A DNA stretch of 64,000 nucleotides from an uncultured Dehalococcoidia bacterium (GTDB taxonomy: Bacteria > Chloroflexota > Dehalococcoidia > Lucifugimonadales > GCA-2712585). Positions 45,802 to 64,000 of this stretch are shown here, piece by piece. How positions within the stretch are numbered: the stretch's first letter is position 1; each line of letters starts with the position of its first letter. The DNA lies in contig OX638324.1 in NCBI GenBank assembly GCA_951812825.1, positions 442,459 through 506,458 on the forward strand, written 5' to 3'. The notes beneath the pieces are model-generated. The model was not told the origin of the DNA and ran no database searches. It saw only the letters and a program-made list of their open reading frames with translations. A program made the translations under genes and the position numbers.

Positions 45802-45960
45802 TCTGGTAGCTGGAGTTGGCCAGCCGGTCGAGGGCGCTGTTGCCGAGGGTGGGATCGTCGAAGAGACTGAGCCATTCCTCCACGGCCCTATTGGATGTGA
45901 TGACGAAACTGGAGACCCGGTGACGGCTGATTATGAGTTGGTACAGATCAGCCGACTGCT
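45755..45960 (-). pseudogene. istB: IS21-family IstB helper ATPase, C-terminal fragment
   Basis: ...ADLYQLIISRHRVSSFVITSNRAVEEWLSLFDDPTLGNSALDRLANSSYQIVIEG matches the IstB C-terminus (LF.LI..RYE..S.I.TSN....EW...F.D..L..A.LDRL.H.S..I.I.G). The N-terminal two-thirds are absent. Confidence 0.7.
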
Positions 45961-45966
45961 GGGATG

Positions 45967-47232: not shown

Positions 47233-47251
47233 TCCACTAGACGAATGCGCC
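47175..47251 (-). tRNA. tRNA-Glu (anticodon CUC), CCA encoded
   Basis: The reverse complement is GGCGCATTCGTCTAGTGGACTAGGACACCGCCCTCTCAAGGCGGAGATCACGGGTTCGAACCCCGTATGCGCCACCA. Its architecture parallels E. coli tRNA-Glu and the anticodon loop is CTCTCAA. Confidence 0.9.
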
Positions 47252-47329: not shown

Positions 47330-47403
47330 TGCCGAGTGGTGTAGTGGTAGCACTCGTGACTCTGGATCACGCAACCCTGGTTCGAATCCAGGCTCGGCAG
47401 CCA
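47330..47403 (+). tRNA. tRNA-Gln (anticodon CUG), CCA encoded; putative ICE attachment site
   Basis: TGCCGAGTGGTGTAGTGGTAGCACTCGTGACTCTGGATCACGCAACCCTGGTTCGAATCCAGGCTCGGCAGCCA, with a U1-A72 pair and anticodon loop CTCTGGA. Confidence 0.9.
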
Positions 47404-48757: not shown

Positions 48758-48991
48758 CTAGCCAACCTGACTCCCCGCTACTGGTCGCGATTCGATCCAG
48801 GCCATGATGTCACTTGCCTTCCACCTCACGGCGCCGGGACCAATCTTCACAGGCCGTGGAAGATCACTTATTTCCATTAACCGATAGATTGAAGATCGAC
48901 TCAATCCGGTAATTTTCTCGACCTCTCGCCGTCTCAATAGTCTGTCTTGCAAAACTCCCTCCTCCTCATTGGTTAAGTTATTGCAGCGCAT
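48758..48991 (-). CDS. alpA: AlpA-family HTH regulator / excisionase-like protein
   Basis: LLRRREVEKITGLSRSSIYRLMEISDLPRPVKIGPGAVRWKASDIMAWIESRP. The start is uncertain. A TTG at 48952 preceded by GGAGGAGGGAG is a good alternative. Confidence 0.8.
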   Translation of the reverse strand: MRCNNLTNEEEGVLQDRLLRRREVEKITGLSRSSIYRLMEISDLPRPVKIGPGAVRWKASDIMAWIESRPVAGSQVG

Positions 48992-49765
48992 AGTTTGGCT
49001 TTCGGAAACAATCACTACACGGACCCCACAATTGGCAGAGGCTAGCCCGGATGGAAGAAAACATCTCTCCGAGACCGGGCGATGCCTGGGTTGGAGATGG
49101 AGCAAGTTCCCGTCTTCTGTACGCTGTGGATTTTGCCTTTGGTTCCATGCCTGAATTCTGAGGAGTCGGGTGATGAATTGTCATGGCTTGTGAGGGGGCC
49201 TCGCGTGAGAGGCCCCTCACCCGGTGTTTGCATTTATCGGCCTGATTTACGGATATTCCCGTACACCGTAATTGCAAGCTTGGATTAAGAGCCGTTTCTG
49301 TGCCAATTCGCTCCAGAATAGGACAATAATTGGTCCTCCAAGAGCGGTCGTTGACAGCACTGTGTGGTAAGGGATCATTCCCCCGTTTAGGGTCATTTTG
49401 GACGAGCTATCATCGTTAACTTGGCGTCAACGAGAGCAGGATTTGCTCCAAGGGAGTAATCGATTCAAGGGACAAGGCCTTGCTCGGAGACTTGGATGCC
49501 CCTACGGGATATAGACTATTAGGCAGGCCAACTCATGAGGGGCATGTCAAGAACGAGACCCGTGCGCAGGTGACGGGAATAAGGGGACAGCAATAATGGT
49601 TGACGCGAATCACCAATGGCGGAGAAGGCCACGTAGGTTGAGATTCCGTGTCCTAAACCGCCCGTAGGGGAGTTGGGCGAATGCCATTGCGGTGAATTGC
49701 GCCGCGGTTACTCTCGTGCCGTGGCTCTCCTGGAGACAGTTGTTGCAACGTAGGTTGCGGCGAAT

Positions 49766-50130
49766 ATCAATTCCGAGAGCCACCACGCAATGACACGTCG
49801 TCGCTGAAGCGTTTGAACAGTTCGGTGCGGTCGGCGATGAGGTCGGCCAAAGCCCGACCCAAGGCTTTGTCGTGCTCTATGCGGGCATTTCGAAGGTCAG
49901 AGTTGGCCATGGCGTTCTGGTATGCCTCATCCTAGACAACTTTCTTTGTCAGTTCTTCGGCAATCACCCTCTGAATCTTGTCCTGGTCCTTCCACTCGAT
50001 GTTGACGAAGCAGTCGTTGAACTCTCGGATGATGTTGGAGAGTCTGTCCAATTCGGGTTCAGGTTTTTGTCCGCCTCCACCGTCGGGGTCGGGATCAATC
50101 TCTGAGTCTTCGTCGGCAAGATGGATCTCC
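49766..50130 (-). pseudogene. hsdR: Type I restriction enzyme HsdR C-terminal remnant with in-frame TAG
   Basis: My translation is ...LDRLSNIIREFNDCFVNIEWKDQDKIQRVIAEELTKKVV*DEAYQNAMANSDLRNARIEHDKALGRALADLIADRTELFKRFSDD..., which matches the conserved HsdR C-terminal (DUF3387-type) region. Only ~120 codons are left, with a TAG at 49932-49934. Confidence 0.65.
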
Positions 50131-50182
50131 TACACCGCCTGTTTTTCAACGCGATAACTGTCCTTACTCGTGGCGGCGGTGT

Positions 50183-51100
50183 TTACCAACCACCTGCTGC
50201 CGACCTCCGACGGCTCAACCCCGGCGCACGGGCGGACATCACTTGCAGGTCTAGGATGGAGGATTCCCGTTCAGGCACGGCTATCACCACCACCTTGGCC
50301 AGCCGCCCCTTCCATAAGACGGGCCGGGCTACAACGGCGTGACCGTCTTGATTGACATACTGAGTCCCGCCACGGCGCATGGCGACATCCGCCAGTGATC
50401 TGGGGGAAGGAGGTCTACCCCACCTGGGCACGTCTCCCGTCTCCCCACTGAGGGCAGGGGAGTCGGGCGTGCCCATACCTCTGGTCCTTTTCACAACCGT
50501 AGCCCTCAGGGAGGGAGGCCCCGTCCAGCCGGCTGGGTCTCCCCTCTCCGTGCTTTCGTACAAGACCACCATCAGGGGCGGGTGGCGCACAACCTCCGCC
50601 AACCTCATGGCCACCGAGGCGTAGGAGCACCGGTACATTCTCTGGAGGGTCAGCACGTCCAGTCCCGACGCACGGGCCATCGCCATGAAGACCCCCGGCT
50701 GCATTAACACCGCCGCGGCGAACCGGTCCCCGTCGTCACATATCTTGCGCGTCGAATAGGAACTGCCGTACAGATCGAACAGGGCTTCGTGAACGATCTC
50801 GTAAACCTCGTGGAGCACCGTGCAGTCCCGGGCACCTGCCCACAGATCCTTGCGGTAGTGGATATGGTGCCCACCGCCGGGAGCGCTGTAGTGGATGCCT
50901 TTCATACTCTCCAGGTGTCTGCCCGTCACGTGTCCGAAGCCCGCCCGCCTCAGCAGAAGGGACAGCTCCTCCATGGTGGGACGGCACGACACCCCAAAGT
51001 AGTCCACGAAGGCCGCGGCCATCCACCCGGGATTGAGGGTCCGGCGGAGATGGACCCCTTCCAACAACAATCGACAGAAGCCGTAGAGTGTTCCCTTCAC
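50183..51100 (-). CDS. ImmA/IrrE-family metallopeptidase-like protein (atypical metal motif)
   Basis: TVLHEVYEIVHEALF...GDRFAAAVLMQPGVF...GLDVLTLQRMYRCSYASVAMRLAEV follows the ImmA/IrrE layout, but HExxH is replaced by HEVYE..H. A GTGA overlap couples it to the upstream XRE gene. Confidence 0.6.
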   Translation of the reverse strand: MKGTLYGFCRLLLEGVHLRRTLNPGWMAAAFVDYFGVSCRPTMEELSLLLRRAGFGHVTGRHLESMKGIHYSAPGGGHHIHYRKDLWAGARDCTVLHEVYEIVHEALFDLYGSSYSTRKICDDGDRFAAAVLMQPGVFMAMARASGLDVLTLQRMYRCSYASVAMRLAEVVRHPPLMVVLYESTERGDPAGWTGPPSLRATVVKRTRGMGTPDSPALSGETGDVPRWGRPPSPRSLADVAMRRGGTQYVNQDGHAVVARPVLWKGRLAKVVVIAVPERESSILDLQVMSARAPGLSRRRSAAGGW

Positions 51101-51537
51101 TGGAGCAGCCTCCTGTTGGTGAACCGCTCGTACATCTCAACGATGAACCGCTTGGCGTTCAGGGAGAGGGGGCCGTCGGGCCTAGTGCCTACCCGGAAGA
51201 CCGGGTCCGCCAGCACGTACTTGTAGGCCCTTTCCACCTCCAACGCCTCGTTGCTGTTGGGATCGGGTTTGGGGCCGTACCCGGCCCGCCTCAGCAGCTG
51301 GCGCAGGTCCACGTTGTATGTTTCCGCCAGCCCTCTGAGGACCTTTCGGCCAGGCCTGCGGTCGCCCCTCTCCAACTGGGACAGATAAGAGCTGGAGATG
51401 CCCGTCCTGCGGGTGATGTCCCTGAGGCTCAGTTCTCCTCTCAGTCTCTTGAGCAGGGGACCTATCTCCTCGTTGCTCTCTGCTTCGCTGACTCTCTCAG
51501 GACTGAGGTTGCCGTTGAACTCTTCCATCTCTTGCAC
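51097..51537 (-). CDS. XRE-family HTH transcriptional regulator (ImmR-like partner of ImmA)
   Basis: LLKRLRGELSLRDITRRTGISSSYLSQLERGDRRPGRKVLRGLAETYNV is a classic HTH_3 pattern. Confidence 0.85.
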   Translation of the reverse strand: MQEMEEFNGNLSPERVSEAESNEEIGPLLKRLRGELSLRDITRRTGISSSYLSQLERGDRRPGRKVLRGLAETYNVDLRQLLRRAGYGPKPDPNSNEALEVERAYKYVLADPVFRVGTRPDGPLSLNAKRFIVEMYERFTNRRLLQ

Positions 51538-51804: not shown

Positions 51805-52035
51805 ATGAAAAAGAACATGAAGCAAGAACTCACCGAAGAACAGGATAGGAGACGGCTCAAAGGGCTGAGGATCCTGGCCCGCATTGTCGTGCGCCATCGC
51901 CTCGCCCATCCCAAGATGTACGTCGACGGCGCAAATGAGGATGGGGCCTCTTTGGTCTCCAGAGACAGTGTGTCTGACGTTGAGCAAAAAACTGGCAAGG
52001 AGCAGAAAGGTGAAGCGCAGAAGACCCTCCTATAG
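51805..52035 (+). CDS. Hypothetical small basic protein
   Basis: 76-aa ORF and first + strand ORF after the regulatory region. No motif recognised. It overlaps the next gene start by 26 nt. Confidence 0.3.
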   Translation: MKKNMKQELTEEQDRRRLKGLRILARIVVRHRLAHPKMYVDGANEDGASLVSRDSVSDVEQKTGKEQKGEAQKTLL

Positions 52036-52249
52036 GGTGAAGCTCGTTCGTGATAAGGTCTGGAAGATTATGCACCGACGCAACATCTCCCAGAACGAGT
52101 TGGCCAAGCTTTCCGGCATGTCCTCGGGTTACCTCTCCCTGCTGATGAGGGGGCTGCGCAGTCCATCGCCGGGGCGACGCAGACAACTGATGAGGGCCCT
52201 GGGAGTAACCAGGTTCGATGACCTGTTCATGCTGGAGACGGTCTCATGA
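52010..52249 (+). CDS. Small HTH (XRE-like) DNA-binding protein
   Basis: I prefer the GTG at 52010, 7 nt after AAGGAG. The core is NISQNELAKLSGMSSGYLSLLMRG. ATGA overlap with the next gene. Confidence 0.6.
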   Translation: MKRRRPSYRVKLVRDKVWKIMHRRNISQNELAKLSGMSSGYLSLLMRGLRSPSPGRRRQLMRALGVTRFDDLFMLETVS

Positions 52250-52578
52250 AGAGCGGCCTCCTACCATCTCACTTAATCGTCGACGACGGGCTGATACCCA
52301 CAGATTTCCCCCAGAGGCTGAACGCCTTCAAAGAAAGGACGGGACTATCCTGGGACGCTCTGGCGGGATGCCTGGGCGTGGACCCCCGACAGCTTCAGCG
52401 TTGGAGGAAGGGCACCAAGCCCAGCGGAGACGGGCTATGCGCCCTCATCCTGCTTGCCGCTCGCATACCCGGCGGCCTTCACACTCTGATGGAAGTCCAC
52501 GTTCTCCCACCGTCCGGGGTGTATCAACCGCCCCTGGCCTCTGGATTCGGAATGAGCGACGAAGGGGAGGAGGCGTAG
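52246..52578 (+). CDS. HTH-like protein, tandem paralog 1
   Basis: FPQRLNAFKERTGLSWDALAGCLGVDPRQLQRWRKGTKPSGDGLCALILLA parallels the next ORF. Confidence 0.6.
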   Translation: MKSGLLPSHLIVDDGLIPTDFPQRLNAFKERTGLSWDALAGCLGVDPRQLQRWRKGTKPSGDGLCALILLAARIPGGLHTLMEVHVLPPSGVYQPPLASGFGMSDEGEEA

Positions 52579-52582
52579 AGGA

Positions 52583-52876
52583 ATGGGAGTTCAGCGAAAG
52601 ATACACAGGCCCGTGCAGTTCGATTTCCCTGAAGATTTTTCCGAAAGGCTTGAACGGTTCAAGGAGGAGAGCGGGCTGAGCTGGAAGGCACTTGCACGCC
52701 TTATGGGTGTGAAGCCCTACCGGGTCTGGAAATGGCGCCAGGGCACCCGTCCCAGTTCGGCCCATCTCTTCCTTCTCCTGACCTTAGCTGACGCCATGGG
52801 ACTAAGGGAGGATATCCTGATGCGACCAGTCAAAGACCTGCCCGCGGGGGTCAACTCGGAGGAGCTGCGCCGGTGA
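52583..52876 (+). CDS. HTH-like protein, tandem paralog 2
   Basis: FPEDFSERLERFKEESGLSWKALARLMGVKPYRVWKWRQGTRPSSAHLFLLLTLA has the same F(P)..F..RL..FKE..GLSW.ALA...GV.P....WR.GT.PS pattern as 52246-52578. Confidence 0.6.
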   Translation: MGVQRKIHRPVQFDFPEDFSERLERFKEESGLSWKALARLMGVKPYRVWKWRQGTRPSSAHLFLLLTLADAMGLREDILMRPVKDLPAGVNSEELRR

Positions 52877-53663: not shown

Positions 53664-54437
53664 TCAACGCCTGATGACGCCCTGCAAATCACGTCCCGAT
53701 GCATTCCTATTGAGGGCGGAGTCCAGTATGTCGAAGGGCTGACGGGCTCGCATCGTGTCTTTCCAGAGAGTCATCTCCCCGTTAGCCTGCTCCTCCTGCA
53801 CGAGCAGGGCGTGGGCCACAAGGCCGGACATCTGAAGCGGCCAGTCGGACCTTGAACTACGGAAAGCGGGTCCGCCGATGACGTTCTTCAAGGGCTTGTT
53901 CCTGATCCGCCGACCGTCCTCCCATTGCTCGTATTTGCTGGGCATGGGATTGAACGTCCTTAGCCGCCAGTAGGTCCTGGAGACCAATCCTTCCTCGCCG
54001 GGGCGGAATATGAGAAAGGCGTGGCGATTTTCCATGGCCACGGATACATTGATGCGATTGAGCAGCCGGTTGAGGCCGACCCGCCTGTAGTCACCACAGT
54101 CCGGCTTGTACAGACAGACGTTTATCACTTCGACGCCACCCATAGCCCGTGCGGCTTCCTCGATACGGCGCAAGCCCCCGGCAATGATCCTTTCTCCCCA
54201 TACTGCAGCGGGCATCCAGCTTTGCGTCCAACTGCGGTTATTCAAACTGACATTCCCACTCAGCAACTCCGAGGGACGAAGATGCCATTCGCAGGGAATT
54301 CCGTGGCGGCGCCACAGCTCTTGTCGCCAATCGCGGATTACTCGAAGGAAATCGTTCCACACCTCGGCATTCACGCCCAGGGCTGTTCGGACGTGGCGCC
54401 TCCGGCTCTCGGCCTCATGAACATAGTAGAGTCTCAT
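53664..54437 (-). CDS. DUF3800-like protein
   Basis: 257 aa, AGGAGAG RBS. The N-terminal LYYVHEAES and C-terminal LQMSGLVAHAL loosely resemble the DUF3800 yiDEsG / LQlADlvA motifs. It is the last gene of the transfer operon. Confidence 0.4.
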   Translation of the reverse strand: MRLYYVHEAESRRRHVRTALGVNAEVWNDFLRVIRDWRQELWRRHGIPCEWHLRPSELLSGNVSLNNRSWTQSWMPAAVWGERIIAGGLRRIEEAARAMGGVEVINVCLYKPDCGDYRRVGLNRLLNRINVSVAMENRHAFLIFRPGEEGLVSRTYWRLRTFNPMPSKYEQWEDGRRIRNKPLKNVIGGPAFRSSRSDWPLQMSGLVAHALLVQEEQANGEMTLWKDTMRARQPFDILDSALNRNASGRDLQGVIRR

Positions 54438-56115
54438 GTATTGTTCTCTCCTTTTTGTTTCGAGATATTCGTGCCTTGGGAATCGGGGCCACGAGTTCCC
54501 ACTGCCCGGGCCTGCGCCACACGCGTCCCAGAGGGCCCCTCCTCTCCACCAGACCCACGTGGGATACCAGCAGTGGCACGGAGACTCCTTTTTGTTCCAT
54601 CTCCTTCATTGCCACACGCAGAAAACCGGTGGCCGCCGATTCCTCGTTGAAGACCACAAATACGTGGGGCGCGGAGCCGTGGTCATCGGCGGGACGGTGT
54701 GTTCCGTAGTAGTTCATATAGGGAGCCAGGCGCACCACCATGGTGATTGGGCGTACAGCCCTCCGCTCCATCTCCAGGAAGAAGGGCCAGTCGACGTTTC
54801 CCTTCCGCAGTAGGCCGAAGGCATCGGGATGGATGGATCGCATGCCGCTGGGGAACCGGAAATAGCGAGAGGCCCTGATGGGCGGGTCCAGCTGTACCGT
54901 CTCCCATCCCAGGTCGCGGGCCTGCCCGGTAAGAGCGGCAAGGAAACCGTGGACGGCAGAAGTATGGTCCACGTGTCGCAGCAGCTGCCGGCTGCGCCTG
55001 CCTGTGACGTTGCGCCAGTGTAGGGGACAATCCTCATTCAGCGGTGAAACACTCCAGCTATTCTTCGCAATCCCCACGGAGGTCCGGTCCCGGCGGGCCA
55101 GTACAGCCAGGCCGGTATCGGAAAGGGCCAGGCGTCCCCCCGACGCCGAAGTGCGAACCACCAAGCCGAAGTCCTTAAGGGAAGAAACCACTTGGGACGC
55201 CCGCGGGCGGGATACCCCCATCAGGCCTGCCAGGTCGCTGAGGTTAAGCCATGGCCAACCGGAGAGCAGGTCCAAGGTGCGCTTCTCCGCGGGCCTGAGC
55301 AGCGCCGGCAGCAGGAAGTCCGGAACGTCCTCCTCCAGGCCGTACTTGTTCAGATCCCGGGGAAAGGAGATTCGAGAGAGAGGCCGCTCCACGGGAAGCA
55401 CCCCGCCGGGGGGCAGCCGGTCGATGGCCGCTCCCAAGTCGATGGCGCCTCTGACGGAGGGCATCTGCCAAACGGAGTGGTAAGTGGCTCCCAAAGCCGC
55501 CTCCCGCTCCAACGCAAGGAGCGCCGACACGGGGGTGAGGGACAGCAGCCTGCGGGCGTACCGCAGCCGAATCTCGTCGGGCATTAACATGAGGACTGTG
55601 CCCGGCAATGGTATTCGTGTAAGTCTCCACACCCGCTTTGCGAAGCCCGTCCTGCCAGAGGTGGGTCCCAGTCGGAATATGCCGACGGTCCTTCCCCCGG
55701 GAAGGTCGATTGCAGCATCCAAGGGCATGGCCCGATACCATCGGAAGCCGATGGGATGGGCCACGTTGGACAGGGCGGTGGCCAGCCGGTAGAGGACGCC
55801 AAGGGAGTCTAGCCGGTCCAGCAGGACTCGCCGCCAACGGGTGGAGACGGGGTGGCTACGCAGCAGTTTGTCCATATCCTTGTTGCCGGCACTGGCCAGT
55901 AGGCGCAATCCCCTTGCGGTGAGGTGGTACCTCCGCGTCAGGGGTGTCAGTTCCGTGGCATGGGGTAGAGATCCCACGAGACCTGATCCCACCAGCCTTC
56001 CCATGGACCTGTAGACGGCTCCCCTGGACCAGCCGGAGATAGCCGCAGCCTCCAGCCGGTCGAGGAAGGGCATACGGGCCAGAAGTCCCATTATCCGGGC
56101 ATCCGGGGGCTTCAC
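54415..56115 (-). CDS. Replication-relaxation (Replic_Relax) family protein with two winged-HTH segments
   Basis: ARMPFLDRLEAAAISGWSRGAVYRSMGRLVGSGLV and LNLSDLAGLMGVSRPRASQVVSSLKDFGLVVR are wHTH-like. The C-terminal HVDHTSAVHGFL...IHPDAFGLL....WPFFLEMERR fits Replic_Relax. The GTG start overlaps the T4CP stop (GTGA). Confidence 0.65.
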   Translation of the reverse strand: MKPPDARIMGLLARMPFLDRLEAAAISGWSRGAVYRSMGRLVGSGLVGSLPHATELTPLTRRYHLTARGLRLLASAGNKDMDKLLRSHPVSTRWRRVLLDRLDSLGVLYRLATALSNVAHPIGFRWYRAMPLDAAIDLPGGRTVGIFRLGPTSGRTGFAKRVWRLTRIPLPGTVLMLMPDEIRLRYARRLLSLTPVSALLALEREAALGATYHSVWQMPSVRGAIDLGAAIDRLPPGGVLPVERPLSRISFPRDLNKYGLEEDVPDFLLPALLRPAEKRTLDLLSGWPWLNLSDLAGLMGVSRPRASQVVSSLKDFGLVVRTSASGGRLALSDTGLAVLARRDRTSVGIAKNSWSVSPLNEDCPLHWRNVTGRRSRQLLRHVDHTSAVHGFLAALTGQARDLGWETVQLDPPIRASRYFRFPSGMRSIHPDAFGLLRKGNVDWPFFLEMERRAVRPITMVVRLAPYMNYYGTHRPADDHGSAPHVFVVFNEESAATGFLRVAMKEMEQKGVSVPLLVSHVGLVERRGPLGRVWRRPGQWELVAPIPKARISRNKKERTIHETLLCS

Positions 56116-58688
56116 TCCTCACGCTCCTTCGCAGCTGGCCCTTCAGGGGATGCTCCAGGTTTCTGGTCACGCTTGGTCCGCACCTTCTGGCGACTAGGTT
56201 TAGGTGGCTCGACCTCCTTCTTCGCTTTCTTCCCGCCGACAAGCTGCTTCATCTCCCGGCGGTATTTCTCCGCCAGGCTGCGCAGGCCGGACTCCCTCTC
56301 CGATATCTCCCCGGACGTCACAAGATAGCCCAGAGCTGCGGCGCGGATGCGGGCCGCTACTTCTGGGTCTCCCTGATCGGGCTTTCTCGTCATCATGGAG
56401 AAGGTTGGAAGGCGCTCCTTCCCCACCGTGGCTCTCACGTAGCAGTGGTGGACGGGGAGCGACACCATGTCCTCCTCAGTGATCCGGTCCTTTCCCAATT
56501 CCCACACAAGCTGTCTTGCGTCGGAACCCGCCACCTGGAACACGGCCAAACATCCCACGTTGGCCAGCAGGGTGTCCCGCATGGTGGTATAGAGGTCGTC
56601 CAGCTTGGCCAGGCTCTGGGTGGCCAGGATGAAGCTGGCTCCAAACTTGCCCAATTCAGAGAGCATGGACTCGTAGTCGACGCCCGGCATGGACTGCATC
56701 TCATCTACCACGACGAGGGCGCCGCGCCTCTTCTCGAGGGGCATTCTGCCCTGTTCCCTGATTACTGAGTCGACCAGATTGAGCAGGGAGGCACCCACCA
56801 GGGCCGCCACGTCCCTGCCGACGACGCCCTGGGAGGTGGACACCAGCAGGATGCCCCCATCAAGAATCGTCTCCCTCAGGTCTATGGTGGAACGGGACTG
56901 TCCCAATATCGCCCTCGCCCTCACAGAGGAGGCGTAGTAGGAGAGGCGGGTCTGGACCGGGGCGAGAGAGTCGGCCTTGTAGTCGCGGCTCCAGCCGTAG
57001 AAGGTGTTCGCCCACCACTCCAGGATGTAGGGGTCGTCGACCTTGTCGAGGACAGTGGTCCGGAAGACGGGGTTGGAAAGGACTTTCAGGCCGTCCAAGA
57101 TTGTGTACTGTTCGGCGGACTCCATCTGCTTGTTGGCCTCGTGCAGGGTCTTGACGGTAAACTCCAGGATGGACTGCATCCTGGGGCCCCACTGGTCCCA
57201 AAGGCCTTTCGCCACCCGCACCACCGAGTCGGCGGTGCGGTCCCTGTCGGAGAAGATCCGGGTGTCAATCAAATTGATGCCCGGCGCTCCCCGCTCGTCA
57301 GCCAGGTCGATGAGCTTCACTTTATTGACGAGAGACTCGGGCACCTGCTCCAGCAGGCCGTTGACCAGGTCTGCGTGGGGATCCACCACGATGATGGCGT
57401 CGCCGTCCCTACCCGCCGCCTTTTGCCGCATCTTGTGAGATACCAGATGGTGCATGAGGGTGGACTTGCCCATGCGGGTGCGCGCTATGTAGAGGTGATG
57501 CCTTCGGAGGAGGTCATCAGGGAAGTGAATCATTCTTGGCGTACCGGAGGTGGTGTCGCCAACGTGGGCGCCGCCACTCACGCTGCCAGCCGTGGGCAGC
57601 AGCATCTTTGCCCCGGAACGGGCCACGAGGGGCGTCTCGTCCTTTGCTCCCGGCGGGTGCCACAGGGCGGCAGCCTCCCTCACACCAATGACACTGCGGC
57701 CGCCGAAGAATCCGGGACGCGAGGGATGCAGGTCCTCCGGGTTGGGAACCATGGGTTGCATCCTTCCCACCCTGAATCTGGCTCCCGCCGGATTGTCGTA
57801 GTGTCGGTAGGCCGCCGCCACCTGTTCCAGCAGATGCTTGGCCCTCAGGGGACGGGTGCCCCTGGGCAGCATGGCGGTGACCTGCACCTCGGCGTCGAAG
57901 GCCATCCGGGCCACTTTCTCCCGTATCAGCAGAGGATCGTATACCCGGTTGCGGGACTTCCTCCACCAGTGCCATATCCAGCCTCCCACGGCCAGTCCGA
58001 GGGCTGATCCTGCGCCAAGGAGGGCAGCTTTCCATATCTCGCCGCTCTGAACCCAGAGATAGCCCCGTATGGCAATAAGGGCTCCAATGCCAAGAACCGC
58101 CATCGTTACGCCGTCCATCCGCAGGAGTCCGGCCTGCTGGGCGGACTCGCTGGATTGAGGAACCGGATTACGATGGGCTTTCTCCATGTACCCCTGGGAC
58201 CAGTCGGGTCCCAGGGAATTAAGTTTCAGCCTGGCCACAATCCGCTCTCCCTCCTGCAGTTCTGACAGGGCAGCCAGTAGGGCCATCATAGGGTCCGAGC
58301 CAGGGTCCAGCAGGTCGTCGTCCCGGAATGTGCGCAGGGACACGTACTCGGGCCCTGAGGCCCTGAGGGTCATGCCCCAGGCTTCTTCTCCCTCGCCCAG
58401 GCGTAGGGGGTCGTTCTTGGGTGACACCTCAGCTATTCTGGCCTGGGGATATCGCACGGCTATCTGGCCGCGCACCACCCGGTCGTCGATACAACGGGCC
58501 ATAAGGGACACGCCGTCCGCGCTGCCGGCCAGCTCCAGGGAGAAGGGCTCCGGCACGGCGATGGACCCCAGCAGGTTCTCCACCCCCAGAAGCGTGCGCT
58601 CCCCCGTACGAGGCGGCGTCACCTCCAACAACCCGGGTCTTTTCGGTTCGGGATCTCCAAAGAGCATCTTCTTCAACTTCAATTTCAT
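56112..58688 (-). CDS. Type IV secretion coupling protein-like ATPase (VirD4/TraG/TraD class, FtsK/HerA superfamily)
   Basis: 858 aa, AAGGAGGG RBS. Two TM helices lie around residues 200-240. Walker A is ARTRMGKST and Walker B is LVVVDEMQS. The tail FGASFILATQSLAKL is T4CP-like. Confidence 0.8.
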   Translation of the reverse strand: MKLKLKKMLFGDPEPKRPGLLEVTPPRTGERTLLGVENLLGSIAVPEPFSLELAGSADGVSLMARCIDDRVVRGQIAVRYPQARIAEVSPKNDPLRLGEGEEAWGMTLRASGPEYVSLRTFRDDDLLDPGSDPMMALLAALSELQEGERIVARLKLNSLGPDWSQGYMEKAHRNPVPQSSESAQQAGLLRMDGVTMAVLGIGALIAIRGYLWVQSGEIWKAALLGAGSALGLAVGGWIWHWWRKSRNRVYDPLLIREKVARMAFDAEVQVTAMLPRGTRPLRAKHLLEQVAAAYRHYDNPAGARFRVGRMQPMVPNPEDLHPSRPGFFGGRSVIGVREAAALWHPPGAKDETPLVARSGAKMLLPTAGSVSGGAHVGDTTSGTPRMIHFPDDLLRRHHLYIARTRMGKSTLMHHLVSHKMRQKAAGRDGDAIIVVDPHADLVNGLLEQVPESLVNKVKLIDLADERGAPGINLIDTRIFSDRDRTADSVVRVAKGLWDQWGPRMQSILEFTVKTLHEANKQMESAEQYTILDGLKVLSNPVFRTTVLDKVDDPYILEWWANTFYGWSRDYKADSLAPVQTRLSYYASSVRARAILGQSRSTIDLRETILDGGILLVSTSQGVVGRDVAALVGASLLNLVDSVIREQGRMPLEKRRGALVVVDEMQSMPGVDYESMLSELGKFGASFILATQSLAKLDDLYTTMRDTLLANVGCLAVFQVAGSDARQLVWELGKDRITEEDMVSLPVHHCYVRATVGKERLPTFSMMTRKPDQGDPEVAARIRAAALGYLVTSGEISERESGLRSLAEKYRREMKQLVGGKKAKKEVEPPKPSRQKVRTKRDQKPGASPEGPAAKEREE

Positions 58689-58747
58689 TTTTCTTCCCTC
58701 CTTTTGATTGCTTCAGTTATCCACGGTTCCGAATTGATCGGCATCCA

Positions 58748-61057
58748 TCACGCCTTGCGATGACTTCCCGGCCTCCACTCGATAACCTCCGTTTCTTCCG
58801 GAGTGGCCTCGATGCGTATGGGGAACCGGTTGCCCAGGGCCAGCAGGAGCCCGTCCCCCCTGGGGCAGGACAGCAACCATCGCTGAAGCTCCTCCGGCAG
58901 GTCGAAGGCATCGCCTACGGTGCCCACCGCCGCCGCGTCCTGCTGCAACAGCAGCTTGAAGGCGGCGTTTTGCAGCAGCGCCCTTCCGCTGTGGCCCGTG
59001 ATGGCTCTCGAGGTGTCCTCGGAGAGCAGGTCCTGCACGTCCTGGGTGATGAACTGGAGTCCCAGCCGATGTTTTCTAGCCCGCTTGGCCATGGAGACCA
59101 TGAAGGCGGCTCCCTCCGGGTGTTGCATGATGCTCCATACCTCATCCACCACCAGCAGGCGGGGCTTGGGGTCCTGGGCAGCGGCGGCCCACACAGTCTC
59201 GGTGCAGACCATGGCCGCAGCGGGACGCAATTCCGGCTCCAGCAGCCTCAGGTCGAAGACTGTGACCAGGGCCTCGTTGCCCAGCAGGTCGTCCCCTTCG
59301 TCGGAGAGGAGATGTCGGAGGCTACCGGTGGCGAAGGGCCTCAGCAGGTGGGCCAGGCCAGGATCGCCGTTCTCGTCCTCCTGAAGGTAGGTGTAGAAAT
59401 CCCGGAAGCCGGTACGCTTCCTGGGTGTGGAATAGTAGCCCGCCAGGGCGTGGTCGAGGGACGCTCTCCTATCCGCGGAGAGCTTCTCGCCAACCATCAC
59501 CTCAATGAGCCTCCTCAGGCTGCCTATGCGCTGCAGCATCTCCTCGGAGTCTCCCTTGTCGATGACGAAGGGGTTCATGCCCTGGCCCGGCACTCCGGGG
59601 GACAACACCCGGCCTCCCGCCGCTCGGGCCATGTCCGCGTACTCCCCTTCGGGGTCAATGACGTAGGCCGTTACGCCCCTGCAAATGCCCCTCAGCACTC
59701 CGAGCTTGGTCGAAAAACTCTTACCGGAGCCCGACCGGGCCAGCACCGCGGTGTTGGCGTTGAGGTGAGTGCCGTCCCAGGGGTCGTAGACCACTGGTGC
59801 ACAGGCCCTCATGTCTATGCCGTACAACGTTCCGCTTCGCGTATCCATATCAGGAGGCGAGAAGGGGAAGATCCTCATCAGCGACGAGGTGTCCAAAGTC
59901 CTCCACACTCCCACGGCGTTCAGGGCCAGGGGCAGCGTGGACATCAACCCCTCCCGCTGCCTGAAGGAGAGGTTGTCGAGTTTCCCCAGGGTGGCGGCGA
60001 AGTGGGCCTTCGCCCTCTGGGTCATCTCCCTAAGGGTCTTTTCGTCCTTTGCGTGGAGGGTGACGGAGAGAGAGGCGTGGAATAGCCGCTCCCTCCCCCG
60101 CTGCACCTGGTCCCTGAGCCGTGTCACGTCCTCCAGGGCAATCTCCGCTTCGGGGGACATGCTCCGTCCCCGCTTGAAGGACAAAGACTGGGCCGACTCG
60201 AAGCGCACCTTCTGCCACTCCAGGGTCCTTGCCGCCTGGTCAGTGGGTATGGCCCCCAGGTGGATGGAGAGGTCCATGGGCGCTCCCGCCGCCATCAGTC
60301 CCTGTAGAAAGCCGGGGGAGAGGGACCGGGGCCACTTCCCCAGTTGTAGGGAACGGACCAGAGTCTCACCCACCCGTACATGGTGACGATGCATCTCCAC
60401 CTCCACCTGGAGGTCCTCATCCATAGTTGAGGGAGAGCCGCCAAGGGCGGTGGATACGAAGAACATCTTCAGCTGTCTGCCCGTCAGGTGGTGTACGGAT
60501 AGCCCCGTCCTGGACAGAAGGCCCCGCAGTTCGTCAACCCGGGGGAACTCACACACGGCGTAGAAGCGCCGGTCCAAGATGCCGTCCCGGCTCTCCAGCT
60601 CCTTGAGCAACCGCCTCAAGGATTCCGACGCCGCCTCCGTCTGCGCGGTAAGATTCGCCGGCTGGGCATATTTCAGCTTTCTTCGTAGTTGTCCCAACCT
60701 TGGCTGATGCTGCCTGATAAGCAGCTGTACCGGGAAGTCCAAGGCGTTCAGGGCTCCGGCAAAGGACCCCAGCTTCGGCTCGTCAATCTCCAGCCCCATC
60801 ACCTCGCACACACCCACCTTCACCCCGTCCAACCTGACGGGCCCGTCCTTCTCCAGGTGGGACAGCATGTAGAACAGGGGCAGGTCGGGAGGCGGCTTGG
60901 GCGCCGGCGTGTCAGCAATTTCTGCACCGTCGGCGGTGCCGGAAGGGTCTGCCTCTCGTTCTGAAGTACTCCGGCCTACGCAATTCCAAACAAGCTCAAA
61001 TAGCTTTTTCAATGATCTAGTCTCCTCTTTGGTTTCAGGGACTTTGGAAGGAAACAA
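58748..61057 (-). CDS. virB4: VirB4/TrsE-like conjugative T4SS ATPase
   Basis: Walker A ARSGSGKSF, Walker B LLVVDEVWS, HRLGLQFITQDVQDLL. The start is uncertain (TTG at 61057 or ATG at 60868). Confidence 0.85.
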   Translation of the reverse strand: MFPSKVPETKEETRSLKKLFELVWNCVGRSTSEREADPSGTADGAEIADTPAPKPPPDLPLFYMLSHLEKDGPVRLDGVKVGVCEVMGLEIDEPKLGSFAGALNALDFPVQLLIRQHQPRLGQLRRKLKYAQPANLTAQTEAASESLRRLLKELESRDGILDRRFYAVCEFPRVDELRGLLSRTGLSVHHLTGRQLKMFFVSTALGGSPSTMDEDLQVEVEMHRHHVRVGETLVRSLQLGKWPRSLSPGFLQGLMAAGAPMDLSIHLGAIPTDQAARTLEWQKVRFESAQSLSFKRGRSMSPEAEIALEDVTRLRDQVQRGRERLFHASLSVTLHAKDEKTLREMTQRAKAHFAATLGKLDNLSFRQREGLMSTLPLALNAVGVWRTLDTSSLMRIFPFSPPDMDTRSGTLYGIDMRACAPVVYDPWDGTHLNANTAVLARSGSGKSFSTKLGVLRGICRGVTAYVIDPEGEYADMARAAGGRVLSPGVPGQGMNPFVIDKGDSEEMLQRIGSLRRLIEVMVGEKLSADRRASLDHALAGYYSTPRKRTGFRDFYTYLQEDENGDPGLAHLLRPFATGSLRHLLSDEGDDLLGNEALVTVFDLRLLEPELRPAAAMVCTETVWAAAAQDPKPRLLVVDEVWSIMQHPEGAAFMVSMAKRARKHRLGLQFITQDVQDLLSEDTSRAITGHSGRALLQNAAFKLLLQQDAAAVGTVGDAFDLPEELQRWLLSCPRGDGLLLALGNRFPIRIEATPEETEVIEWRPGSHRKA

Positions 61058-61379
61058 GGCCTCCCAGCAGCAGCGTGACCACTGCCTTTGCCGAGAGCAC
61101 CAGGACCAGCCCCACCACCGCCATGATCACGGCGGTCCTGGCGCCGCCCCCGTCGCTTCCCTCGCCGCCCTCGGCCATCAGCATGAATCCCGCCCAGACG
61201 ATGGCGAAGAGGCAGAGGCCCGCGGCGGCATAGGTCATGGCCGTGAGAATCTGGTCGAAGGCCTCGGCCATATCCTCGAAGGCCGCCAGCTTCTCCTGCG
61301 CGTCCGCGCCCGTCGTGACCAGCGCGACGCCGGCCAAGAGGATTGCCGCAATGCCCCGTCTCACCAGGGCCACTCCCAT
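61035..61379 (-). CDS. Small secreted two-TM protein, VirB2/TrbC pilin-like
   Basis: ORF 61035-61397. ATG at 61379 follows GGAG. It has a signal peptide (MGVALVRRGIAAILLAGVALVTTGADA) and then two hydrophobic helices separated by a Gly/charged loop. Confidence 0.5.
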   Translation of the reverse strand: MGVALVRRGIAAILLAGVALVTTGADAQEKLAAFEDMAEAFDQILTAMTYAAAGLCLFAIVWAGFMLMAEGGEGSDGGGARTAVIMAVVGLVLVLSAKAVVTLLLGGLVSFQSP

Positions 61380-63118
61380 CCCAGCTCCTCGAACCACTGG
61401 CCCACCTCACCGCTGTCCGCGGGCCTCTGCTCCGATAGGGGTAGTTCAGTGATCCTGTCTGGGAGTATCAGCACCCCATAGGGTTCGTCGGACGCTATGC
61501 CGGTTGCCATGTCCAGGGTTTCCGTTCGGCTGCGAATGGCTGGTGCTCTCCGCTCCACATCCGCCTTCACGTGCTCGGGGTGAATGATGGGGATAGTCAC
61601 GCTCTTGAGAATCTCCTGGCTGGGAATAGACAGGGTGGCGGAGATGGTGTGCTCCGTGGTGGTGCCGTCGCCGTGCTCCACCTCCACCTTCTTGCTGACG
61701 GTCTGGCTCGTGCCGGGACGGGTGAGGGTCACCGTCGTCGCGCGTTGTTCCGTGCGCTCCGCATGGTGGGTGAGCCGGGTCAGGGGCGGCAGCGGTATGC
61801 TGAGGCTTGTCTCCGTCTCCACAACGATGAACACGGGAAAGACGGCCTTTGCCGCGTCCACGTCCAATCGGAATGAAGTCTCCCCGTTGGGGACCAGGGG
61901 TACGGCGGTGCGAGAGCCCTTGGTCACGGCGGAGACGACTCCGGTGACAGCTGTCACATCGGCGTCCATGAGGGACATCTCTCCCACGCTCACGTGGCCC
62001 GCCACCGCGGGAAGGGCTATCAGCTTCTTCACCCTATCCTCGCACTCCGACTCCACCACCCCTTCGATGGCGCCGGGAGTCCATCCCAGGGAAATCAGAC
62101 TCAGGTCACAGATCTCCCCCTCGGCCTTGGGCAGGGGATGAGGAATCTGGTCATTGGCAATAGAAAAGGCTCCCGCCTGTCCGAGGCTGTCCTCCCAGGA
62201 GAAGGTGAAAGAGGGAAAAGATCCCTCCAGGGGCAGCTCGTAGGCGACCCCCTCCCCCTCCACCAGCTGGGTCGCAGCCCAGGAGACGAGCTCCGTTCCG
62301 AACCGTCCCCCGTAGGCCTGTATGCTTATGTGCAGGTCCGTGGCTGCCCTGAGGGCAACGACGGCTTTGTCGCCGGTGACGGTCAGCCCCTCCAAGTATA
62401 GGCGCCGTCCCGGCACGGGGTCGAAAACTTCGAACTCTATCTCCTCCCGCCAGTCCTCGTCGGCCAGAGTTGGCTGAGGCAGTGCGACGGCTGTTGCCGC
62501 TAGGACAGCGGCAAGCACTGCCGCCCACAGCCTTGGAAATCTCTTGACACGGTCCTTCTTGTACTCCGAGTCTTTGTTGTTGGTATCCTCCGGCGATTGC
62601 CGGCGGTCCTTGCCAAACCACCGGTGGGGTCGGAAGGGCATCCGCCCGTTTTTCCGGTCGCCACTGCTCCTCTTCCTGCGCGGTATCCGGCGACGCGCCG
62701 ATTCCATCATTCCGCCCAGCCGACGAGCATTGCGCCTCGCCCGCATGGCCAGCAGGATCAGTGGTCCGGGGCTGTCTTTCGCCGTCTCCACCCGCACGGG
62801 CGGCTCGCTGCGAAGCAGCTGAGACACTGGCCCCACGTAGCGCCTCGGTCCCAACCGGTACCTCAGCAGGTCGGCGACCACCAGGGGCAGCCGCCGACCT
62901 GCTATCTTTCCCACCACCATGGCAATGCCGAAGAGGCCGAACAGGACGGATAGTCCCATCCTCACCCCCGAAGGCCCCACGGGGGCGTAGCGGTATACGC
63001 CGTAAGAGAGGGCGCATACCGCCACCATCGCCACTATCTGCGGAAAGGTGAACCAGAGCAGCACCCGGTCCTCCGCCTCCACGTGGGTGGGTACTTCGTG
63101 TTCTCTCATATTCTCCAC
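61361..63118 (-). CDS. PrgI-family (VirB3-like) conjugal transfer protein with long C-terminal extracellular extension
   Basis: GGAGGTGGAG RBS. The N-terminus VPTHVEAEDRVLLWFTFPQIVAMVAVCAL..., with a second TM, matches the PrgI pattern. It is followed by a basic linker, a third TM (LWAAVLAAVLAATAVAL) and a ~390-aa beta-rich domain. Confidence 0.6.
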   Translation of the reverse strand: MENMREHEVPTHVEAEDRVLLWFTFPQIVAMVAVCALSYGVYRYAPVGPSGVRMGLSVLFGLFGIAMVVGKIAGRRLPLVVADLLRYRLGPRRYVGPVSQLLRSEPPVRVETAKDSPGPLILLAMRARRNARRLGGMMESARRRIPRRKRSSGDRKNGRMPFRPHRWFGKDRRQSPEDTNNKDSEYKKDRVKRFPRLWAAVLAAVLAATAVALPQPTLADEDWREEIEFEVFDPVPGRRLYLEGLTVTGDKAVVALRAATDLHISIQAYGGRFGTELVSWAATQLVEGEGVAYELPLEGSFPSFTFSWEDSLGQAGAFSIANDQIPHPLPKAEGEICDLSLISLGWTPGAIEGVVESECEDRVKKLIALPAVAGHVSVGEMSLMDADVTAVTGVVSAVTKGSRTAVPLVPNGETSFRLDVDAAKAVFPVFIVVETETSLSIPLPPLTRLTHHAERTEQRATTVTLTRPGTSQTVSKKVEVEHGDGTTTEHTISATLSIPSQEILKSVTIPIIHPEHVKADVERRAPAIRSRTETLDMATGIASDEPYGVLILPDRITELPLSEQRPADSGEVGQWFEELGWEWPW

Positions 63119-63121
63119 CTC

Positions 63122-63445
63122 CTAGCTCTTGGGTCCGTCGGTCGGGGGATCTGTGGGTGATCCGGGGTTGTAGCTGCTCTCCGTGGGGTCCGGGATGTCG
63201 ATGTCCACGGGGGATCCCACCACCGCGTCCATCACCAGCTCCACCACGCCATAGGCCACCATGGCCAGGATGATGCCCGCCAGGGCCGTCATCATGGCGC
63301 TCTTTCCCTTCTCCATCTGGTGGGGCGCACCGGAGGCCGTCAGGTACATGTAGGCCCCGTAGACGAAGAAGCCCACCCCCACGGCCCCCACTATCCCCAG
63401 CATGATCCCCACCAGGTTCGATATGGTCTGTGTCAGGTCTTCCAT
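63122..63445 (-). CDS. Small two-TM protein, second VirB2/TrbC pilin-like candidate
   Basis: ORF 63122-63520. ATG at 63445 follows GAGAGGAG. The sequence is MEDLTQTISNLVGIMLGIVGAVGVGFFVYGAYMYLTASG...MTALAGIILAMVAYGVVELV with a Pro/Asp-rich tail. Confidence 0.5.
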   Translation of the reverse strand: MEDLTQTISNLVGIMLGIVGAVGVGFFVYGAYMYLTASGAPHQMEKGKSAMMTALAGIILAMVAYGVVELVMDAVVGSPVDIDIPDPTESSYNPGSPTDPPTDGPKS

Positions 63446-63600
63446 TTCTTCTTTTTCTCCTCTCTCTAGGATTGTCTGGTCGTCGTTCGTGGTCCTTGTA
63501 TTTGTGTCCTCTATTTGCACATCTCTTCACCGCCTTGCTTTCGTTCCGTTGAGGCGAGCCGTTGCTCGCTTCTTGTGTTTCATCGTGGTAGTTGCGAGGT

Positions 63601-64000
63601 CTATTCGCTGCTGCTCCGGGGAGTGGCTACCCCAGCACTACTGCTAGCTCCGCCTGAAGGGGTGGCCATCTCCGCCATGGACCTGATGCCGCTCGCAGCA
63701 GTGGACAACCCCGCGCTGGCGGCGGCTCCCGCCGCCATGCCCGCTGGTCCTCCACCAAGTCCTCCCGCCACCATGCCGATGGTCTTCGCCGACCTGATCA
63801 TGGTCCCCGGCAGGTTCAACCCGAAGTAGAGGGTGCTCACCCACGCGTCGAAGGTGCCCACGTTGCCCAGCAGCGAGGGAATCCTGGTGGCCATGTACAC
63901 GAAAGCCACCGACAGCAGCAGCTTCCACACCAGGTCCTGCACGGGTTCGTAGGCCTGGATCGCCGCCACCTCCTGCAGGAAGCCGAAGCCCAGGGCCAAC
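63601..64000 (-). CDS. Membrane protein C-terminus, VirB6/TrbL-like (5' part beyond window)
   Basis: The frame is open to the window edge. It has hydrophobic helices followed by a Gly/Ala/Ser-rich tail (GGLGGGPAGMAAGAAASAG...), as in TrbL/VirB6 C-termini. Confidence 0.4.
   Translation of the reverse strand, partial: LALGFGFLQEVAAIQAYEPVQDLVWKLLLSVAFVYMATRIPSLLGNVGTFDAWVSTLYFGLNLPGTMIRSAKTIGMVAGGLGGGPAGMAAGAAASAGLSTAASGIRSMAEMATPSGGASSSAGVATPRSSSE

Follow-up and report, generated by a model that had tools for sequence, protein, structure and literature searches.

A predicted MOBC-class relaxase built of two tandem modules is encoded next to the coupling protein of a Dehalococcoidia conjugative element

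We analysed a 64,000-nt stretch of DNA from an uncultured Dehalococcoidia bacterium (assembly GCA_951812825.1, contig OX638324.1, positions 442,459 to 506,458), hereafter referred to as the window. Its last quarter has the appearance of an integrative conjugative element, inserted beside a tRNA-Gln gene of a Dehalococcoidia-like host genome and encoding a VirB4 ATPase, a coupling protein (T4CP) and a pilin-like, monoderm-type T4SS. The element end is marked by the tRNA-Gln gene (47330-47403, plus strand), a tyrosine integrase gene (47569-48723, plus) and an AlpA/Xis-like gene (48758-49105, minus), followed by a probable regulation module that comprises an ImmA/IrrE-like M78 peptidase (50183-51100, minus) and an XRE-type HTH repressor (51097-51537, minus). 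Because the 3' end of the tRNA-Gln gene is not repeated inside the window, the second element boundary is placed outside it.

The T4SS genes all lie on the minus strand. Reading from the window edge, where a TrbL/VirB6-like gene is visible up to the last positions (63601-63999), they encode a T4SS_pilin protein (63122-63520), a 585-aa membrane protein (61361-63118), a pilin-like protein (61035-61397) and a VirB4-family ATPase that is nearest to the CD1110 family (58748-61057; NF045971, 225 bits, E 2e-66; further matches to TraC_F_IV and P-loop_TraG). The 858-aa product of the next gene (56112-58688) was identified as a VirD4-type T4CP on account of its matches to TrwB_AAD_bind (37.2 bits; cut-off 20.5) and TraG-D_C (26.5 bits; cut-off 22); it carries a Walker A motif (GKST), and hydropathy analysis revealed a hydrophobic segment near residues 188-213, taken as the N-terminal membrane anchor typical of such proteins. 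Then comes the gene of interest, a 566-aa open reading frame (54415-56115, minus), and directly downstream of it a gene for a 257-aa protein of unassigned function (53664-54437, minus), which is conserved at the related loci L003 and L006 and had no Pfam, NCBIfam, PADLOC or PHROG match.

At the junction between the coupling-protein gene and the 566-aa frame, the minus strand reads ...gaaggagcgtgaggaGTGAagc, with the GTG start at 56115-56113 and the TGA stop at 56114-56112. An AAGGAG Shine-Dalgarno sequence sits 8 nt upstream of the GTG, and this start is upheld by the conservation of N-terminal residues among homologues (M1, P3, D5, L11, L12, M15, P16 and others). The GTGA overlap (56112-56115), to which the earlier note had drawn attention, is thereby confirmed, and it is kept—as (A/G)TGA—at four loci from related Dehalococcoidia and metagenomes (L003, L004, L005 and L006), all of which share the order VirB4, T4CP, putative relaxase. 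Four-nucleotide start/stop overlaps are frequent in bacterial operons and unremarkable by themselves. In all loci, the putative relaxase gene closes the T4SS operon. Exact look-up of the protein, with either version of the start codon, returned no record; its nearest homologue is 94% identical, and its homologues number more than 2,600, some of them titled 'replication-relaxation family protein' in Chloroflexota MAGs. A tblastn search against the PLSDB plasmids gave no match.

Profile searches bore out the proposal that the C-terminal part of the protein is Replic_Relax-like. PF13814 matched residues 368-484 (profile positions 80-190) with 40 bits (cut-off 25.3), and the second half of the protein alone scored 33.8 bits (profile positions 61-190); the motifs singled out beforehand fall at residues 381-386 (HVDHTS), 428-433 (IHPDAF) and 445-452 (FFLEMERR). 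For comparison, the TraX homologue of plasmid pAM373—a plasmid typed as MOBC by MOB-suite and encoding a PF13814 protein—reached 27.1 bits, a weaker match than that of the 566-aa protein. The remaining Pfam matches are to helix-turn-helix families, namely MarR_2 at residues 275-328 and HTH_IclR/PadR at residues 7-74.

PF13814, or Replic_Relax, was placed in the PD-(D/E)XK superfamily by Steczkiewicz et al. (2012) and corresponds to the MOBC class known to CONJscan, MOB-suite and MOBscan (PMC5357655); CONJscan, for instance, calls the PF13814 proteins of streptococcal IMEs MobC (Coluzzi et al. 2017, PMC5357655). PMC12857230 and PMC6736028 describe two such restriction-endonuclease-like relaxases as experimentally characterised, pAD1 TraX and CloDF13 MobC, and together with PMC6499999 they give a PD-(D/E)XK fold, a D-E-E metal triad and a winged-helix (wHTH) domain as features of MOBC relaxases. 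The view that the role of Replic_Relax proteins is unresolved thus no longer holds. The earlier note had also stated that no MOB-type relaxase is visible in the element. This was correct with regard to HUH and Rep_trans domains, none of which turned up in Pfam and NCBIfam searches of the sizeable ORFs at 47.4-64 kb, the element part of the window, but it fails as a general claim because the 566-aa protein itself belongs to MOBC. Labelling it 'non-canonical' is acceptable in the sense of the literature, where the term denotes MOBC as non-HUH (PMC6499999).

The catalytic part of the protein resides in a C-terminal module (module 2), in which a wHTH domain (residues 263-345; 55081-55329, minus) precedes a PD-(D/E)XK core (residues 376-548; 54472-54990, minus), the arrangement seen in MOBC relaxases. 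MarR_2 matches this wHTH at 30 bits, and its Foldseek and PDB matches are MarR-family repressors. Across 32 homologues of 27-87% identity, H384 (codon at 54964-54966, minus), P430, D431 (54823-54825), E448 (54772-54774) and E450 (54766-54768) are invariant, while Y466 (54718-54720) and Y469, both in the helix following the ExE motif, are at least 90% conserved. The putative D-E-E triad D431/E448/E450 has the spacing and context of the TraX family—a PDA/xDF strand, then F-x-(L/I)-E-x-E—and the overall motif order equals that of the enterococcal family, H102...D152...E170-x-E172...Y181. Of these TraX residues, D152, E170 and E172 form the triad and Y181, after the ExE strand, is the essential tyrosine according to PMC12857230 and PMC6736028; Y466, its candidate counterpart, lies 16 residues past E450, as opposed to 9 for Y181 past E172. 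Residue equivalence with TraX was taken from motif order, as the automatic alignment misregisters. BLASTP detected no similarity between the 566-aa protein and pAM373 TraX, HHalign against that protein was non-significant or weak, the HHalign comparison of the two families was weak (77% probability, E 2e-5) with the nuclease part misregistered, and a nuclease-only profile comparison with the TraX family failed. Since the profile comparison is weak, what ties the protein to the characterised MOBC relaxases is the Pfam model common to them, together with motif order as read by eye.

The structure prediction that the earlier note had suggested points in the same direction. A full-length model drew Foldseek matches to MarR-type wHTH proteins only, and the nuclease core was for this reason modelled alone with AF2. 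The resulting core agrees with the alpha-beta-beta-beta-alpha-beta layout of the PD-(D/E)XK fold, in which strands two and three carry acidic residues; it has a helix (H8-27), four to five strands, a second helix (H82-97) and one more strand. Its best structural matches are restriction-endonuclease-fold proteins—XisH (TMt 0.58), PaqCI, FokI, BstEII, BamHI and N.BspD6I—at modest Foldseek E-values, of which the best is 7e-3 and none reaches 1e-3, and with a moderate model confidence (pLDDT 67). The metal site of BamHI consists of D94, E111 and E113. Genes for a T4CP and a MOBC relaxase side by side are a known layout of this class. Based on the PF13814 match, the invariant triad, the restriction-endonuclease-fold match and the MOBC-typical position, the element has a relaxase of a recognised MOB type. 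We consider it probable that the 566-aa protein is the MOBC-class relaxase of this integrative conjugative element, the nicking activity itself being predicted from sequence. As the earlier note had anticipated, the protein is a candidate for the element's DNA-processing enzyme, and the best one; its gene and that of the T4CP share an operon. A headline of an ICE without a recognisable relaxase, however, fails: a MOBC relaxase would sit in its usual T4CP-adjacent place, and its annotation is routine.

What sets the protein apart is its N-terminal half. Two winged-helix regions had been proposed to precede a single nuclease domain; both regions are present, but the layout is one of two complete modules, each a wHTH followed by a nuclease-like domain. 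Module 1 consists of a wHTH (residues 1-87; 55855-56115, minus), which harbours the HTH_IclR and PadR matches, and a degenerate nuclease-like domain (residues 88-245; 55381-55854, minus) that lacks the D-E-E triad. HHalign aligned the two modules with each other (98.6% probability, E 7.6e-16), as it did the two wHTH domains (98.4%, E 6.5e-15) and, over 133 columns, the two nuclease parts (83.5%, E 8.3e-6), and the order of AF2 secondary-structure elements is identical in both modules. P139-G140 of module 1 stands opposite P430-D431 of module 2, and the ExE strand is without counterpart. The degenerate domain has invariant residues of its own (R101, D133 and R161), and the module 1 half on its own gave no match in a PF13814 search. 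The tandem architecture is retained in homologues with as little as about 27% identity, within a family that falls into over 1,000 clusters at the 50% identity level and whose distant members came without taxon names in cluster look-ups. Judged by these alignments, module 1 goes back to an ancient duplication of the complete wHTH-plus-nuclease module and has lost the triad. A tandem double-module MOBC relaxase with a triad-less first copy appears to be undescribed.

Comparison with known systems underlines both the kinship and the difference. Enterococcus faecalis TraX (pAD1/pAM373) shares with the 566-aa protein the PF13814 match, a wHTH that precedes a PD-(D/E)XK-like domain, the H...D...ExE...Y order and a gene position downstream of the genes for VirB4 and a VirD4-type T4CP. 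It differs, however, in having only one module (about 261 aa in all) where the 566-aa protein has two, the first of them triad-less, and in its host phylum (Bacillota rather than Chloroflexota); on pAM373, moreover, about 860 bp with small ORFs separate the T4CP gene from traX, whereas the 566-aa gene overlaps its T4CP gene by 4 nt. CloDF13 MobC, the MOBC prototype, compared here by description, is likewise a restriction-endonuclease-like relaxase beside its own coupling protein, the T4CP-like MobB, but it is a small single module from a proteobacterial plasmid that is mobilisable and encodes no T4SS of its own; a covalent DNA intermediate was not reported for it (PMC12857230, PMC6736028). The streptococcal IME_Class_8 elements (Rel_PF13814/MobC, VirD4 and a serine integrase; Coluzzi et al. 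2017) are also integrated and also carry a compact module in which the PF13814 relaxase gene comes after that for the VirD4 T4CP, yet they are only mobilisable, lack a T4SS and have a single-module relaxase, whereas the Dehalococcoidia element brings VirB4 and pilin genes of its own along with a tyrosine integrase. BamHI and the FokI cleavage domain, restriction-fold nucleases that act as dimers, and Nt.BspD6I, a natural nickase derived from such enzymes, have the folds matched by the core model, and the triad resembles that of BamHI; these are restriction enzymes rather than relaxases, however, while the 566-aa protein fuses a presumably live and a dead unit in one chain, each with a wHTH. 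That pairing a live with a dead catalytic unit gives a nickase is a principle known from the heterodimeric BspD6I system.

On these grounds, we propose a mechanism in which the relaxase and the coupling ATPase would be made from one transcript, the C-terminal module (wHTH 263-345; core 376-548) would recognise oriT and nick one strand by means of its BamHI-like D-E-E metal site, and the T4CP would pass the nicked strand on to the T4SS. Within a pseudo-dimer, the N-terminal module would serve as an inactive partner supplied by the protein itself; its wHTH, the second in the chain, would help to recognise oriT asymmetrically, and the module would limit cutting to one strand. We infer that a single polypeptide may in this way form a pseudo-dimer of which one active site is live; the inter-module geometry is unreliable in the AF2 model (pTM 0.38). 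As a tentative extension, which we regard as possible but doubtful, the Chloroflexota clade as a whole might consist of single-chain pseudo-heterodimers—a dead and a live PD-(D/E)XK unit with a wHTH each—whose design builds the nicking of one strand and the asymmetric recognition of oriT into the protein, and single-module enzymes such as TraX and MobC might then work as dimers in which only one site fires. To our knowledge, no other relaxase class is as poorly understood as MOBC, with no structure, a covalent intermediate that has never been detected and an unclear basis of one-strand nicking. If true, the pseudo-heterodimer reading would help to explain how a restriction fold became a relaxase and why the covalent intermediate has gone unseen. 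A large and ancient clade with a duplicated module, one copy of which is inactive, amounts to a natural experiment on single-strand nicking by MOBC enzymes; it also documents widespread conjugative elements, presumably driven by MOBC, among the Dehalococcoidia and elsewhere in the Chloroflexota, a phylum with few well-characterised mobile elements.

Three other roles were weighed against that of a relaxase. The protein could be a wHTH regulator of the transfer genes whose nuclease-like fold serves dimerisation or ligand sensing, with the true relaxase elsewhere in the element or acting in trans. Owing to its HTH fusions, Replic_Relax was listed as a 'predicted transcriptional regulator' by Steczkiewicz et al., many TraX homologues are titled 'ArsR family transcriptional regulator', MarR repressors are the strongest full-length matches in PDB and Foldseek searches, and the far end of the element lies beyond the window. 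Yet a purely structural domain would not be expected to keep the D-E-E triad and H384 invariant down to 27% identity, the conserved 4-nt overlap locks the gene to the T4CP gene, and TraX, of the same architecture, is a demonstrated relaxase (PMC12857230, PMC6736028). No other relaxase was found within 10 kb upstream of the T4SS operon at the related loci L006 and L008, and we hold a regulator to be quite unlikely.

A protein that nicks DNA to start replication of the element after excision, or an enzyme with a dual job like the MOBT relaxase NicK of ICEBs1, would agree with the Pfam family name and the cited role in plasmid replication (Steczkiewicz et al.), with the match of PHROG 9381 ('replication initiation by nicking') to the catalytic core (E 1.5e-3) and with the precedent of dual-use relaxases (PMC5357655). 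Here, the conserved coupling to the T4CP gene and the operon-end position in all loci point to transfer instead, and related elements have their primase gene elsewhere, which leaves a replication initiator unlikely; a dual role in replication and transfer, on the other hand, is compatible with the relaxase explanation. It is highly improbable that the element carries the protein as cargo, as a defence or restriction nuclease that takes no part in transfer: the PD-(D/E)XK fold is common to restriction enzymes, but PADLOC returned zero matches for the protein, no methyltransferase gene is adjacent, and diverged loci retain the gene's synteny with those for the T4CP and VirB4.

The oriT-like repeat that the earlier note had proposed to look for near 53.6-56.2 kb did not materialise, the search there finding only short two-copy matches inside coding sequence, and across 47.3-64 kb no convincing oriT-like inverted or iterated repeat emerged. 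A candidate oriT lies beyond the window, ahead of the T4SS operon, in the equivalent of positions 740-830 of L003; a block that is conserved upstream of the relatives' T4SS operons has no match in the window, and an Rfam search of the candidate region returned nothing. A pattern scan of metagenomes gave 13 loci, a number near rough chance expectation. The loci outside the group named below look like chance or unrelated matches. Extended flanking similarity is common to seven of the 13 (L009, L011, L012, L013, L015, L016 and L019), and L013, the one scan locus examined for genes, has a T4SS operon downstream.

The 566-aa protein encoded at 54415-56115 on the minus strand belongs to an integrative conjugative element that extends past the window at 64 kb. 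Directly upstream of its gene lies an 858-aa ORF (56112-58688, minus strand) whose product, with TrwB_AAD_bind and TraG-D_C matches, a GKST Walker A motif and a hydrophobic N-terminal stretch, is a VirD4-type coupling protein (T4CP). Further upstream follow a VirB4 ATPase gene (nearest to the CD1110 family, E 2e-66), two pilin-like genes, a gene for a 585-aa membrane protein and, at the window edge, a TrbL/VirB6-like gene. The opposite end, away from these type IV secretion system (T4SS) genes, is marked by tRNA-Gln (47330-47403) and carries a tyrosine integrase, an AlpA/Xis-like gene, an ImmA-like peptidase/HTH repressor pair and several small HTH genes. GC content climbs from ~0.53 to 0.63 across the element. 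Its closest relatives were found in Dehalococcoidia MAGs, and window 48.2-64 kb has a collinear counterpart in one related locus, L003, with 86-89% identical nucleotides.

The sequence at the junction of the two genes is gaaggagcgtgaggaGTGAagc; the GTG start of the 566-aa ORF (56115-56113) therefore overlaps the TGA stop of the T4CP gene (56114-56112), confirming what the earlier note had read there, and an AAGGAG lies 8 nt 5′ of the GTG. Homologues start at the corresponding residue and are conserved over the first 20 positions, so this start is not a longest-ORF artefact. The (A/G)TGA overlap is kept in four related loci, in two of which identity of the 566-aa protein is only ~53-54%. When window 54415-56115 and 56337-63998 were compared with the related loci L004, L005 and L006, the former diverged faster, at 63-68% nucleotide identity versus 64-80% (mostly 71-80%) for the T4SS/T4CP genes. 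Directly downstream, a gene for a 257-aa protein (53664-54437, minus strand) is kept in L003 and L006; its product had no match in any library searched. The 566-aa protein is longer than its homologues by ~15 residues at the C-terminus, and its gene overlaps the 257-aa gene by 23 nt.

Pfam matched Replic_Relax (PF13814) to residues 368-484 at 40 bits (cut-off 25.3), with winged helix-turn-helix (wHTH) signals at residues 7-74 and 275-328, and all motifs quoted from this protein beforehand were found in it. While the role of Replic_Relax proteins had been considered an open question, the literature places PF13814 in a relaxase class: Coluzzi et al. equate Rel_PF13814 with the MobC superfamily, recognised by CONJscan, and report integrated elements in which a VirD4 gene and, after it, a PF13814 relaxase gene form a compact module (PMC5357655). 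MOBC relaxases are related to PD-(D/E)XK restriction endonucleases, the superfamily to which Steczkiewicz et al. assigned Replic_Relax; they have a D-E-E metal site and an N-terminal wHTH and bind a site far from nic, with no covalent intermediate detected so far, and pAD1 TraX and CloDF13 MobC are the experimentally characterised prototypes (PMC12857230, PMC6736028, PMC6499999). Plasmid pAM373, typed MOBC by MOB-suite, likewise encodes a ‘replication-relaxation family protein’ downstream of VirB4 and T4CP, and that protein reaches only 27 bits against PF13814, less than the 40 bits scored here. The 566-aa protein is thus predicted to be a MOBC relaxase, in the usual gene context of that class.

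Alignment of 32 full-length homologues (27-87% identity) revealed H384, P430, D431, E448 and E450 as invariants of the C-terminal half, with R452, Y466 and Y469 conserved in at least 90%. In the enterococcal TraX family, invariants occur in the same order (H102, D152, E170-x-E172, K176, R180, Y181), and D431, E448 and E450 are thus the predicted D-E-E triad. An AlphaFold2 (AF2) model of residues 375-548 (pLDDT 67, pTM 0.69) reproduces the succession of elements in a restriction-endonuclease core (helix, strands, helix, strand), and its best PDB matches, all with E-values of 7e-3 or weaker, were XisH (TM 0.56-0.58), PaqCI, FokI, BstEII, BamHI and the nickase N.BspD6I, so that the comparison with nuclease folds suggested earlier led to proteins of the restriction-endonuclease fold. 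A weak PHROG match read ‘replication initiation by nicking’, and a PADLOC search gave no matches. BLASTP of the protein against TraX returned nothing; HHalign gave a weak alignment (77% probability, E 2e-5) in which the nuclease part was out of register, and none was supported when restricted to that part. Because direct similarity to TraX is weak, what connects the protein to characterised MOBC relaxases is the shared Pfam model together with motif order, fold and genomic setting.

The protein consists of two tandem copies of the entire wHTH-plus-nuclease module. HHalign of the family alignment matched module 1 (residues 1-262) to module 2 (263-566) with 98.6% probability (E 7.6e-16, 234 columns); the wHTH parts alone gave 98.4%, and the non-wHTH parts alone 83.5% (E 8e-6, 133 columns). 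The order of AF2 secondary structure is identical in both halves, and each ends in a conserved tryptophan (W216, W533). The two wHTH segments and C-terminal Replic_Relax domain initially described are present, but as parts of two complete modules. Module 1 lacks the triad: P139-G140 stands opposite P430-D431, the ExE strand has no counterpart, and the N-terminal half alone did not match PF13814. Module 1's own invariant residues (R62, R101, D133, R161) show that it is under selection. All full-length relatives, down to ~27% identity, share the two-module architecture, in a family that clusters at 50% into 1,228 representatives, 257 of them at E ≤ 1e-30. A literature search returned no description of tandem MOBC relaxases; this half-inactivated architecture appears to be new, literature silence being no proof of novelty.

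No HUH or Rep_trans domain was detected in any sizeable ORF of the element within the window, nor is a relaxase encoded in the 10 kb upstream of the T4SS operon in L006 and L008. The absence of those domains, as proposed in the earlier note, thus stands; its reading that no MOB-type relaxase is visible there does not, the 566-aa protein itself being of MOBC type. With a known relaxase type in its usual context, the element is in this respect ordinary; it is the tandem, half-inactivated variant that merits a specialist's attention.

In the mechanism we consider most likely, T4CP and relaxase would both be translated from one message, module 2 would bind oriT via its wHTH, its D-E-E site would nick one oriT strand, and the T4CP would feed the nicked strand to the T4SS. 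PD-(D/E)XK nucleases are usually dimers cutting both strands. Module 1 might act as a built-in inactive dimer partner of module 2, an idea that we consider less likely than not; because the full-length AF2 model reaches a pTM of only 0.38, it lends this part no direct structural support. Such a fused live and dead unit would cut a single strand only, and two non-identical wHTH domains would read an asymmetric site.

A repeat search found nothing oriT-like at 53.6-56.2 kb, where the earlier note had suggested looking for an inverted repeat, nor elsewhere within the window. Outside it, the first T4SS gene of related loci is closely preceded by a conserved block of 24 nt, TCCYGTACA-S-N4-ATGACA-N-CAC, followed 20-27 nt further on by a strong hairpin (DNA-fold z-scores -1.9 to -5.6) of fixed position and lineage-variable sequence. 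The pair has this position in L003 (740-830, equivalent to ~window 65.3-65.4 kb), L004 (721-810), L005 (773-860), L006 (8786-8870) and L008 (8888-8950), and is also present in the metagenome loci L009, L013 (4497-4590), L015, L016 and L019, among which only L013 was checked for genes and has the same operon downstream. Lineage-specific palindromes or direct repeats precede the block, such as TTCCGAAAACGGAA three times in L004/L005 and GATTGCACTGTGCAATC in L013. Upstream of the operon, L006 and L008 both encode a primase, Rad52-like proteins and RadC, a set resembling a plasmid leading region, with SSB only in L006 and a DUF6094/methyltransferase-like protein in L008. With a conserved site, an adjoining variable inverted repeat and a position between these leading region-like genes and the transfer operon, the pair has the appearance expected of an oriT and is a candidate for one; a promoter or operator with a 5′-UTR hairpin is an equally open reading. 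In L006:1-8800 and L008:1-8700, the gene set is divergent from the T4SS operon, the primase is Toprim/DnaG-like and the Rad52-like proteins are annealing proteins; the former stretch also encodes a group II intron reverse transcriptase.

Among the other related loci, L007 is a decayed copy of the element family: unrelated genes come immediately after its T4SS genes and T4CP, and the relaxase is absent. The T4SS genes of L008 are fragmented, and VirB4 and T4CP of L006 (13090-17976) were called as a single 1,628-aa product, through fusion or a sequencing frameshift. Within the window, the genes for the ImmA/IrrE-like M78 peptidase and an XRE-type HTH protein overlap (50183-51537, minus strand), a combination known from ICEBs1-type regulation as the repressor/anti-repressor pair; small HTH genes in divergent orientation are found at 51884-52876. 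Short broken ORFs at 49767-50150 (minus strand) lie in 1 kb of sequence that holds no genuine gene; their peptides seem similar to the C-terminal end of a type I restriction R subunit, so these ORFs may be what is left of a pseudogene. A perfect 10-bp hairpin lies at ~49190-49220. Just outside the element, at the tRNA cluster, the gene for a 388-aa protein of large serine recombinase type (45758-46924, plus strand; Recombinase and Zn_ribbon_recom domains, with no resolvase catalytic-domain match listed) adjoins tRNA-Glu (47175-47251, minus strand) and may be left over from another integrated element. A 622-aa ORF (43136-45004, minus strand) looks like an unusual fusion: its N-terminal domain is Haem_oxygenas_2, typical of an iron-containing redox enzyme, and its C-terminal one is an MR_MLE domain of the enolase superfamily.
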